DNA from: a virus | Lineage: Duplodnaviria; Heunggongvirae; Uroviricota; Caudoviricetes | Reading direction: 5' to 3' (one strand) | Length of the DNA stretch: 39,041 nt | IMG/VR virus record: IMGVR_UViG_2667527592_000008 | Shown: positions 24,041 to 26,518 of the stretch, in pieces | How positions within the stretch are numbered: the stretch's first letter is position 1 | Layout: each line of letters opens with the position of its first letter | The notes under the pieces: generated by a model | The model's input: the letters and a program-made list of their open reading frames with translations, nothing else | Database searches by the model: none | What the model was told of the DNA's origin: nothing | Program-made: the position numbers and the translations under genes

Positions 24041-24075
24041 ATTAATCAAAAAGCCCCACCTGGGTGGGGCTTTTC
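24041..24075 (-). terminator. Intrinsic terminator overlapping the 3' end of the Mor/C-like gene
   Basis: Minus strand reads GCCCCACC-CAGG-TGGGGC then TTTTTGATTAA, with the stop codon inside the U-tract; the plus strand also shows a T-run after the stem. Confidence 0.7.
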
Positions 24076-24509
24076 AGCGAAGTCTGTTTTTGTCGTCGGT
24101 GTATCAGTTGCCATGCGTACCGGTCTGAAATGCCGTAACGGGGACAGAGCAGTGCCAGCGCCTGCCGGTGTGAGCATCCGCCTTTTACATGCTGCTGTAA
24201 ATCAGCCATAAAACGGGTGTTACGCAGGGCACGTAACGCATGATCGCAACGGGGAATGTAAAACGGTGCGCCGCCAAGAAAACGGATCAGTTTGTTGATT
24301 TCGTCTTCGGTCAGCACGTCATGTAACAGGGCATGGACACCGCCGGTGCGTTCGGCGTGTACGCCGGTTTTACCGCTTAACGTCACGCCACCAAAAGAAC
24401 GAATCAACCGGGTCAGGGCGGGGAAGCCAATCACGCTAATCAGTTGCTGCACGGAATCGGGCAGCAGTGCCTGCGCATCGCGAAGATCTGTTTCACTGAA
24501 GGTCTGCAT
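24042..24509 (-). CDS. Mor/C-family transcriptional activator
   Basis: 155 aa; C-terminal region GGAPFYIPRCDHALRALRNTRFMADL...LCPRYGISDRYAWQLIHRRQ follows the Mor/C helix-turn-helix pattern. Located after the GemA-like gene, as Mor is in Mu. Confidence 0.8.
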   Translation of the reverse strand: MQTFSETDLRDAQALLPDSVQQLISVIGFPALTRLIRSFGGVTLSGKTGVHAERTGGVHALLHDVLTEDEINKLIRFLGGAPFYIPRCDHALRALRNTRFMADLQQHVKGGCSHRQALALLCPRYGISDRYAWQLIHRRQKQTSLKSPTQVGLFD

Positions 24510-24608: not shown

Positions 24609-24947
24609 TTATTTTTTATTCTCGTTTATCAACACCAGGTATCCTCTGACATACTCCCATACTTTCTGGTTATCTGTTGGATGCACTTTTCGACAATCTA
24701 TGGCTTCATTTCCATAATCGCCAATGTCAGCTTGGGCTTGTGTTAAGAGAATAACCTTCCTGAGAGCGCATCCTCTGATGGTATCCTTTGAAATATCATC
24801 CCAGCCATTCATGTATGAATAAGCCAGATTACGTTGTGCCTGATAATCGCCCTGTAATGTTTTTTTGACCAAATCTTCCTCTGAATCAGAAGCATGGGAT
24901 ATCCCTGTAAAACATAAAGTCAGAATAAGTAATAACAGTTTTTTCAT
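24609..24947 (-). CDS. Secreted protein with signal peptide (AT-rich moron; loosely Sel1/TPR-like)
   Basis: 112 aa with N-terminal MKKLLLLILTLCFTGISHA signal-like segment. The gene is visibly more AT-rich than its neighbours and sits between the GemA-like and Mor-like genes. Confidence 0.6.
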   Translation of the reverse strand: MKKLLLLILTLCFTGISHASDSEEDLVKKTLQGDYQAQRNLAYSYMNGWDDISKDTIRGCALRKVILLTQAQADIGDYGNEAIDCRKVHPTDNQKVWEYVRGYLVLINENKK

Positions 24948-25339
24948 TTACGTCTCCTTGAATCTTTAACCAGCGCCACCATCACTCCAAAAAGCTGTTC
25001 ATCCGTCAGCCATTCGATCACATGTTGCTTATACATGTGAGATGCCAGTCCTTCTGCATACGCCCAAGAACGACCGGCATCAGCCAGCAACGCTTCAATT
25101 TTGGATAATACTGATTTTCTGCTCATTGCAACACGAGGGCGGCGACCTTTACCAGCGGGTGCCTTGCGCGGGAATCCCTGTTCGTGCATGTATTCCCGGA
25201 TGATGCGCAGTTCATCGAGATTGCAGCGTGTGGTGCTGGTTTTACCGGTCAGGCGGGCCAGCGTCTGGCGATAAAGGGCATCATCCCACCCCAGATACGC
25301 CTGACCAGCTTTAATGGCCCCGATCATCTTTTTCAGCAT
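24944..25339 (-). CDS. GemA-like protein (Mu gp16 / DUF1018 family)
   Basis: Start taken at MLKKMIGAIKAGQ; the pattern LARLTGKTSTTRCNLDELRIIREYMHEQGF...GRRPRV..SR...KIEALLADAGRSWAYA...HM...EWLTDEQL matches GemA/DUF1018. The ORF track extends to 25438. Confidence 0.75.
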   Translation of the reverse strand: MLKKMIGAIKAGQAYLGWDDALYRQTLARLTGKTSTTRCNLDELRIIREYMHEQGFPRKAPAGKGRRPRVAMSRKSVLSKIEALLADAGRSWAYAEGLASHMYKQHVIEWLTDEQLFGVMVALVKDSRRRK

Positions 25340-25589
25340 GTTTGTTATCCTCAAAACGCACGGTAAAACGTGAAACGCCAATCCCTGACAAGAACGCAGC
25401 GGCACGGTCAAGAGACAACCACGTCTTGTAATCGCCACGGCGTTCCTGTAGAAAATAGGACACCCCGGCGCGGCGATTCACAGCGAAGAGATGATACACA
25501 CCACCGAACCGCTGCACGACGAACTCATCCACGCCACCGCTTTCAGCCTGTTGCCGAAAGGCTGCCATTCCGATTTGTTCAATCTTCAT
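25311..25589 (-). CDS. Hypothetical early protein
   Basis: About 92 aa from the ATG at 25589 (the ORF track uses a TTG at 25598); overlaps the GemA-like start. No family recognised. Confidence 0.45.
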   Translation of the reverse strand: MKIEQIGMAAFRQQAESGGVDEFVVQRFGGVYHLFAVNRRAGVSYFLQERRGDYKTWLSLDRAAAFLSGIGVSRFTVRFEDNKHAEKDDRGH

Positions 25590-25594
25590 AATGA

Positions 25595-25634
25595 CCAAAA
25601 CACTACTTTTGGCAGACCAAAAAACATGTTTTGG
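25595..25634. promoter_or_regulatory. Two tandem CCAAAA-N6-TTTTGG palindromes (operator-like)
   Basis: CCAAAACACTACTTTTGG and CCAAAAAACATGTTTTGG with centres about 22 bp apart, just upstream of the gene starting at 25589. Confidence 0.45.
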
Positions 25635-25743
25635 CCTGCATTTGATTACTGTTTAAACAACTCGCGAAATCAGGAACGTCGAGTTTCGGTGATGGCTTTC
25701 ATCGTGTTGTTGCTCCGTGATTCAGAAAATTTCATGCCGGGCC

Positions 25744-26154
25744 TCAGTATGTGAAATAGACAGTTGCCACGCCGTTATAGTGATCAAACGACACGGCGTT
25801 TACCTCATAACTGGCCGGTAGCTTCGAGCCAAGAACGTATCCGGGCCACGTTTTCCATGGAATTTCTCTGCTCTCACTGTCGCCATATACCGTACATCCC
25901 AGTGAGCCTACAGCTTCATAAGAACGCTTACCGCACGTTATGAACCCCAGATGTTGCTTACTGCCCTTAACAGAAATCGGGAGAGCACTGGCTGATGCGT
26001 TAGCAGCGTCCCGCTCCTGTTGGCTTGCGATATTCGCAGAGTTTGCAGCAGCTACAGCAGCCGTGGTCGCAGCGGCAGATGCCACAATAACTGCTGAAGC
26101 CTGCGTATGTTGGGTAATGGTTAGCAATGCCGCCACAAAAATCATTTTCTTCAC
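25744..26154 (-). CDS. Secreted protein with signal peptide, unknown function
   Basis: 136 aa; N-terminal MKKMIFVAALLTITQHTQA followed by an Ala/Ser/Thr-rich linker and a cysteine-containing C-terminal domain. Confidence 0.55.
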   Translation of the reverse strand: MKKMIFVAALLTITQHTQASAVIVASAAATTAAVAAANSANIASQQERDAANASASALPISVKGSKQHLGFITCGKRSYEAVGSLGCTVYGDSESREIPWKTWPGYVLGSKLPASYEVNAVSFDHYNGVATVYFTY

Positions 26155-26166
26155 CTGGCACCTCCT

Positions 26167-26349
26167 TTACATACCGTGATTTTTCCAGCGGTTTTGGGCT
26201 GCGCTTCTGTTTCGCCAGACACCGTAAAAACGAATAGAGGACCACTCCCTAAAACCAAGATATCTATAGCGAACAACAAGCCGATTTGAGATACGGATAA
26301 GTTGCCCCGGCTTTGCTATCAGCAGTCTTGCCTTACGGTTTTTCATCAT
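26167..26349 (-). CDS. Small basic ORF, translationally coupled
   Basis: 60 aa ORF whose start overlaps the stop of an upstream 57-codon ORF (about 26346..26519), which in turn overlaps the stop of the 26519..27148 gene. Coding status uncertain. Confidence 0.3.
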   Translation of the reverse strand: MMKNRKARLLIAKPGQLIRISNRLVVRYRYLGFREWSSIRFYGVWRNRSAAQNRWKNHGM

Positions 26350-26518
26350 TTTGCTCTCCTGCGTTTCTTTGCTTCGCGTCGTGCAGCTGCAATACCGGTA
26401 TGGCGGCGCTTTTGTGCCGGGATGATGTTGTCAGCCATCAGGACATGTGGCTTTGCAATTAGCGCAGAAGCCCAAAAACGAGTCGGGTACGGTAACAAGC
26501 CGATACATGCCACACGCA

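Follow-up and report, generated by a model that had tools for sequence, protein, structure and literature searches.

The tandem operators of the OR/OL type in phages lambda, 434 and P22 consist of two inverted repeats about two helical turns apart and, like the operators of autoregulated small plasmid and phage genes, they lie immediately 5' of the gene that they regulate. Control may also be exerted on the messenger: in the com-mom leader of Mu, the coat-protein operator of MS2 and Qbeta and the autogenous repressors of T4, a structured leader abuts the start codon. Regulatory palindromes ahead of small phage genes are common. Here we describe two palindromes of the type CCAAAA-N6-TTTTGG that precede a small gene, orf92, in a Mu-like Escherichia coli prophage (IMG/VR record IMGVR_UViG_2667527592_000008; the whole stretch of 39,041 nucleotides is called the window), whose genes are read on the minus strand. 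The pair is clearly functional sequence, and it looks like an ordinary kind of local control site, of which this example is uncharacterised. The reading we favour, with a probability of roughly 0.4, is that of a tandem DNA operator that belongs to orf92 and is most likely bound by the orf92 product.

In Mu itself, the corresponding place in the genome, where the gemA-mor block of the semi-essential early region begins, is taken by the gem operon (gemA-gemB/mor), whose expression is reported not to depend on early repression. According to Paolozzi & Ghelardini (1992), as their work is cited in PMC3820752, this operon is reportedly expressed constitutively in lysogens.

The palindrome pair and its conservation

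The element and the genes that follow it are arranged as below.

25613–25638, minus strand: palindrome A, distal; core CCAAAA-N6-TTTTGG (25617–25634) with CAGA/TCTG flanks
25595–25612, minus strand: palindrome B, gene-proximal; in gene orientation CCAAAA-GTAGTG-TTTTGG
25593–25639, minus strand: the complete array of four half-sites, readable as two direct 22-bp units, each of them an inverted repeat
25311–25589, minus strand: orf92, a 92-aa gene (WP_000687850, phrog_7844); its last ~30 nt overlap the start of gemA
24944–25342, minus strand: gemA (Pfam GemA), the next gene downstream of orf92

The core of palindrome B is CCAAAACACTACTTTTGG and that of palindrome A is CCAAAAAACATGTTTTGG, and we recovered at exactly the same coordinates (25595–25634) the two 18-bp palindromes of the same type that the original prediction, made from the letters of the window, had pointed out. 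In gene orientation the sequence reads GCAGG-CCAAAACATGTTTTTTGG-TCTG-CCAAAAGTAGTGTTTTGG-TCATT-ATG, and GACCAAAACA is common to three of the four half-sites. The direct repeats are spaced by 22 bp, start to start, which agrees with the distance of about two helical turns given there. The predicted position upstream of a gene is also borne out: palindrome B stops 5 nt before the ATG of orf92 (25589, minus strand), in the place that is usual for a Shine-Dalgarno sequence, and neither the window nor the E. coli clade has such a sequence between palindrome B and the ATG. Palindrome A extends to an inverted repeat with 11-nt arms (25612–25622 and 25629–25639, 91% complementary). The window carries a variant with a CAGG flank and the centre CATGTT; in most haplotypes palindrome A is a perfect palindrome of 26–28 bp, (G)CAGACCAAAACAT-ATGTTTTGGTCTG(C).

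The two sites stand alone. With one mismatch allowed, CCAAAA-N6-TTTTGG matches only at these two places in 39 kb, where 0.25 matches are expected; the same is true of CCAAAA-N4-8-TTTTGG (0.05 expected, two matches in 0 of 100 shuffles). The search for other copies in the prophage, proposed together with the original prediction, gave none beyond the pair when relaxed patterns were run over the 39-kb window, early control region included. In E. coli genomes the element occupies one place per prophage, and a loose DNA pattern scan of viral contigs was only flooded by chance matches.

The conservation of the element was assessed in 48 loci of the E. coli clade, taken from IMG/VR, metagenomes and complete E. 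coli genomes, which were found via the protein or the flanking DNA and never via the palindrome. They represent 29 haplotypes over positions −55 to +279, with the following numbers of variable sites.

Four 6-nt arms: 1 of 24
4-nt linker: 0 of 4
Two 6-nt centres: 9 of 12
orf92, first codon positions: 14 of 93
orf92, second codon positions: 8 of 93
orf92, third codon positions: 52 of 93

The arms are under strong purifying selection, since a single arm site varies, compared to 9 of the 12 centre sites and 52 of the 93 third positions. The constraint on the arms equals that on second codon positions, whereas synonymous sites are no freer to vary than the centres. Palindrome B, for instance, has invariant arms save for one C to T change, and its centre varies at four of six sites. 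Every one of the 58 E. coli genomes with an orf92 5' end has both palindromes, and the shortest match still reaches window position 25637; absence from near-identical relatives, which would have spoken against the original prediction, is thus not seen.

The only gene that is always linked to the element is orf92, which always lies directly downstream of the palindromes. The element travels with it while the upstream modules, at least four, change. Judged by this linkage, the element is a local cis-element of orf92.

More distant relatives, at 62–76% protein identity, were found in Intestinirhabdus, Leminorella and four metagenomic Mu-like prophages. All six of these intermediate relatives have the blocks ACCARA...TWTGG-N4-CCAAAATA...GGAWTGG with the 22-nt register unchanged, and their GGA serves as ribosome-binding site. 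The half-site blocks CCAAA, TTTGG, CCAAAATA and TGG are kept even where complementarity is lost, and no insertion or deletion alters the register of the 22-bp units or the 6-bp length of the centres in any E. coli or intermediate lineage. The two units evolve in concert: they are identical at 13.7 of 22 positions within a lineage versus 11.8 of 22 across lineages, a difference reached by 44 of 5040 permutations.

Farther out, at 28–43% identity, this palindrome sequence is absent upstream of the orf92 homologs, and GemA is not among the neighbours of the distant homologs. In a non-Mu phage, only a remnant of the element precedes the homolog. Within the orf92 family, 7 of 12 lineages carry, 13–39 nt ahead of the ATG, a perfect inverted repeat that is significant and in many cases has TTTG..CAAA as its core. 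Scans of genomes, metagenomes and viral sequences for more distant contexts gave few new lineages, and a tblastn search of sequenced phages gave no orf92 homologs. We also note that the chromosome of Leminorella grimontii (CP146357) contains two related Mu-like prophage copies with an identical orf80 and the same local gene order, in which a gene for an HNH endonuclease lies between the orf92 homolog and gemA.

DNA operator or RNA leader

Two different modes of action have to be weighed in particular. In the first, which we favour, the palindromes would act as an operator pair on double-stranded DNA, in which site A would be strong and site B weaker, both facing the same side of the helix at a spacing of 22 bp. 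The operator would belong to orf92 as the first gene of the orf92-gemA block, and would most likely be bound by a dimeric factor evolving together with the site; the best candidate is the orf92 product, in which case the gene would be autoregulated. In the ancestral state the site may have overlapped the orf92 promoter, with the −10 element in the centre of site A; in the window this promoter would have decayed, and the bound protein would mainly hinder read-through transcription from upstream into orf92, gemA and mor. The sequences show that the pair exists, that its arms are under selection, that its register is fixed, that it is linked to orf92 and unique in the prophage, and that an equivalent repeat overlaps a promoter-like site in distant homolog lineages; that a protein binds the DNA, which protein this is and what regulation follows are inferred. 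In the second mode of action, which is nearly as likely, the four half-sites would form leader hairpins in the early polycistronic mRNA, which would set the initiation of orf92/gemA translation, the stability of the mRNA, or both. It may be that a bound protein takes part in this, as in a translational operator.

The locus has several of the features that are expected of an operator, namely conserved arms, tolerant centres and a fixed spacing of an integral number of helical turns (22 bp). Moreover, the fixed register and the blocks that are kept without complementarity are better explained by sequence recognition and helical phasing than by pure RNA structure. The phage repressor is an unlikely binder, because the prophage, its early operator region included, contains no further copy; we rejected the idea of a site for this repressor, or for a regulon-wide factor, for that reason. 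None of the motifs of the host factors IHF, Fis, CRP, LexA, TyrR, PurR, FadR and sigma-54 fits the palindromes in a comparison made by eye.

Several observations weigh against an operator. A promoter scan of window positions 25200–26400 detected no promoter-like site, and the best scores obtained there with a position weight matrix (PWM) are 4.7–5.3, at misplaced positions. The hexamer at the equivalent −10 position is TGTTTT in the window and varies among E. coli haplotypes (it is TATGTT, within the centre of palindrome A, in the majority haplotype), so that an internal promoter is not supported for this prophage, and a protein bound here, if there is one, has no well-conserved local promoter to control in this clade. 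Further copies, as in a regulon, are missing from the 39-kb window and from the early control region. The structural model of the orf92 protein has no recognisable DNA-binding fold, neither helix-turn-helix nor ribbon-helix-helix. Last, RNA hairpins explain the E. coli data about equally well.

The situation differs in three distant lineages of the orf92 family (L150, L152 and L156), where a sigma-70-like promoter overlaps the equivalent inverted repeat, its −10 element ending 31–32 nt before the ATG. These promoters have PWM scores of 11.5–12.7, and 9–10 of 12 according to the scan tool.

L150, promoter-like site: TTGATT-18-TATTAT
L152, promoter-like site: TAGGCA-16-TGnTATAAT
L156, promoter-like site: TTTAAC-17-TATATT in the PWM scan, TTAACC-16-TATATT according to the scan tool

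L156 is a Mu-like prophage with orf92-gemA and has a terminator-like hairpin just upstream of the promoter-like site. The overlap is also weakly present in c-type E. coli, the type of upstream module carried by strain E2348/69; the module of the window is of the a-type. The internal regulated promoter that the original prediction had suggested therefore finds its counterpart in these relatives and not in the window, which has no promoter-like site. As for the dimer-of-dimers operator suggested in the same place, the four half-sites, conserved arms, free centres and fixed 22-bp register agree with it; the lack of a promoter in the window and of further copies does not.

The possibility that the element acts as RNA draws on its folding. 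The sense-strand leader folds better than shuffled sequences (z = −4.22 for the window and −5.85 for the majority haplotype), and palindrome A would form a stem of 11–12 bp. Two conformations are conceivable, one in which hairpin A forms and the start region is open, and one in which a nested helix (half-sites 1:4 and 2:3) buries the 10 nt before the AUG. They are nearly isoenergetic in the majority haplotype (−23.5 versus −22.7 kcal/mol), and the window variant is predicted to switch to the nested form (−23.4 versus −18.7 kcal/mol). In 21 haplotypes, 99.2% of the cells are paired. All four single arm substitutions are A to G or C to U changes on the C/A-rich 5' arms, giving G.U pairs that can form on the sense strand only; the 3' arms are free of single substitutions, and one pair underwent a compensatory change from C-G to A-U. 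However, this 4:0 asymmetry between arms reaches only about p = 0.06, and the covariation measures are attained by 58–92 of 500 shuffles.

The position of the element is also consistent with an RNA leader: it abuts the initiation region, 5 nt before an AUG that has no Shine-Dalgarno sequence and where the relatives carry GGA, and such a function would persist whatever the upstream module and without a promoter. The best matches to the fold of the orf92 protein are the RNA-binding eL38 and, more weakly, SRP9/14. Against an RNA leader, the six intermediate relatives do not have any one helix in common: the three candidate helices pair in 41 of 66, 20 of 36 and 31 of 42 cells, and G.U is not preferred to A.C, whereas these relatives do retain the 22-nt register and the blocks of sequence. 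The length of the loop never varies, although RNA loops would tolerate variation. In L150, L152 and L156 the −10 element overlaps the repeat, so that the predicted start sites would leave the left arm untranscribed. Rfam contains no match to the element (the best score is 17.4 bits, for a cut-off of 55.8), and in the relatives nothing matches at the element; a known RNA family was discarded, since its covariance models gave chance-level matches only.

The orf92 protein and the surrounding prophage

The candidate binder is annotated as a hypothetical protein in RefSeq. It has no Pfam domain, and its family, phrog_7844, has no annotated function. The family is tiny: 5.8 billion clusters yielded 13 matches, and 1.84 billion proteins only 8 cluster representatives. 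The AlphaFold model of orf92 (mean predicted local distance difference test score, pLDDT, 82) has a beta-alpha-beta-beta-beta-alpha-beta topology. A Foldseek comparison of this model with the PDB and with viral models returned nothing significant or annotated; besides eL38, the N-domain of FtsH is among the fold matches. No homology of orf92 to gp14 or gp15 of Mu was found.

A weak similarity to ParC, the partition-associated protein of the IncP-6 plasmid Rms149, extends over most of orf92. The ParC family of NCBIfam (NF041544) matches orf92 with E = 0.003, and hhalign aligns orf92 with the ParC of Rms149 over 72 columns with a probability of 23%. Both proteins have the C-terminal motif RG-x3-(F/W)-x-S-(L/F)-D-x-AA-x-L-x3-GV-x2-(F/W)-T. 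Unlike members of the ParC family, orf92 scores far under the cut-off (17 versus 95 bits). To our knowledge, no mechanism has been described for ParC, and for this reason the similarity gives no function for orf92. In plasmid Rms149, the parG-parC spacer contains a 7-bp inverted repeat, AGTGATT-GAGT-AATCACT, across the stop codon of parG (48473–48505), which may parallel the repeats that precede genes of the orf92 family or be due to chance.

A bolder idea, which we consider rather doubtful, is that orf92 and the double palindrome form a self-contained autoregulatory cassette that gates gemA and Mor, and that the protein represents a new family of small nucleic-acid-binding proteins with an eL38-like alpha/beta fold, remotely similar to ParC. 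The orf92 protein would then bind its own leader of four half-sites, as DNA or as RNA. If this were true, the cassette would give Mu-like prophages a second checkpoint, either for the early-to-middle switch or for the expression of gem during lysogeny.

The DNA on the distal side of palindrome A contains the junctions between this conserved block and a variable set of genes, and an upstream open reading frame runs from within palindrome A to the start of orf92.

25637–25656, no strand: mosaic junction zone, where homology with prophages carrying other upstream modules stops
25586–25627, minus strand: a 13-codon upstream open reading frame, MFFGLPKVVFWSL followed by a stop; its ATG lies in the centre of palindrome A and its TGA overlaps the ATG of orf92 (ATGA)

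Homology breaks off at window positions 25637, 25648 and 25656, at or just outside the outer edge of palindrome A, and the junction zone holds a semi-conserved block, TAATCAA in gene orientation (25642–25648). No fewer than four upstream modules, unrelated to one another, are attached within some 20 bp of this edge. One reading is that the palindromes would serve as a sequence for recombination, a linker or a cruciform DNA element, marking and promoting the mosaic junction without any regulatory role. We find this improbable: the junctions lie outside the palindrome and not inside it, and a linker does not explain the base-by-base purifying selection on the 32 arm and linker positions next to free centres, the location of palindrome B beside the ATG, or the register that is kept in distant relatives. 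Palindromes of this length are far under the size at which they are unstable or cleaved in E. coli.

That palindrome A is an intrinsic terminator or barrier to transcription of the opposite strand, which would shield the upstream modules, is very improbable: an antisense hairpin A with a T-rich tail was flagged by the scan tool in two relatives, L002 (TTGGTTATTA) and L005 (GCTTGATTAT), but not in the window, the runs of T are not continuous, that strand shows no evident gene or promoter, and neither palindrome B nor the fixed register would be explained. An intrinsic terminator on the sense strand was rejected as well, for want of a U-tract and of any flagged site in the window or its relatives.

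The upstream open reading frame is not conserved. Its ATG is in frame with orf92 in the haplotypes whose centre is CATATG, and missing in others; some annotations of CATATG haplotypes call a 104-aa protein that starts at this ATG. A coding explanation of the palindromes, in which orf92 would be extended by 12 aa through them, was abandoned, as the frame is wrong in the window and the ATG is missing in other haplotypes.

The upstream module of the window itself is a 136-aa gene with an N-terminal signal peptide (25744–26154, minus strand; phrog_8805) in which no Pfam domain was found. It sits between the palindromes and a 60-aa hypothetical gene (26167–26349, minus strand). The module of the 136-aa gene also occurs, with 77–87% DNA identity, in the lytic phage Av-05, in E. 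coli plasmids of ~92–108 kb and in other prophages, and it looks like a mobile 'moron'. Near the 3' end of the 60-aa gene, a 75-bp piece (26176–26250) is found with 91–96% identity in many E. coli genomes, often unannotated, and its opposite strand contains a terminator-like hairpin (26188–26202). We dropped the idea of an antisense small RNA that ends at this hairpin, which lies inside the 60-aa gene of the sense strand.

Regarding the rest of the early region, open reading frames of the size of transposases A and B occupy positions 31691–33733 and 30779–31672, respectively, and a gene of the Mor family (Pfam match) lies at 24042–24509. gemA is probably co-expressed with orf92. Strains GF75 and 160-11H1 of E. 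coli carry an identical stretch. Sub-threshold Rfam matches were obtained at the same place in two relatives (L002 1091–1149 and L003 628–686, minus strand; Chlorobi-1 with 22 bits and the RsmY 3' end with 20 bits), around the 3' end of mor and in the spacer behind it; they probably reflect just a terminator hairpin after mor.

Significance and comparison with known systems

If the palindromes are a real control point, the expression of gemA and of the Mor activator could be separated there from that of the rest of the early operon. This would apply to a widespread group of Mu-like prophages of E. coli, including one in the enteropathogenic strain E2348/69, and it would give a first functional handle on phrog_7844, a rare and unannotated family. 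The natural haplotypes already carry mutations that discriminate a DNA operator from RNA hairpins, which makes the locus a clean natural test case. The finding overturns nothing that is already established.

The element shares its sequence with none of the systems with which it can be compared: neither the tandem phage operators, nor the com-mom leader, nor the gem region of Mu. In Mu (NC_000929), in which no orf92 homolog was found, a gap of 275 bp that holds only the doubtful reverse-strand gp15 precedes gemA, and a GC-rich hairpin, GGCGGTG-TTGCAG-CACCGCC, stands directly before the gemA ribosome-binding site (positions 4195–4215 of the Mu locus, L159). Despite the matching position, this region is unrelated in sequence to the palindromes described here.

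With known translational control hairpins, the locus shares alternative pairings that would expose the initiation region differently. The com-mom leader is an example from the same phage family, and its position relative to the start codon is alike. Unlike in these systems, to which there is no similarity in sequence or structure, it is the stems and not the loops that are conserved here, and the structure is not kept in more distant relatives.

With regard to the tandem operators, the differences are that the window has no recognisable promoter, that the candidate binder lacks a helix-turn-helix or ribbon-helix-helix fold, and that site A has unusually long arms of 11–12 bp. Unlike the site sets of immunity repressors, the element has no copy at the early (Pe-type) control region of this prophage. 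What it has in common with the tandem operators of phage repressors and with autoregulated small plasmid and phage genes is the conservation of the outer half-site bases, the free centres and the unequal strength of the two sites; in the distant lineages of orf92 homologs, the repeat also shares with tandem phage operators the overlap with −10/+1, here of a promoter-like site.
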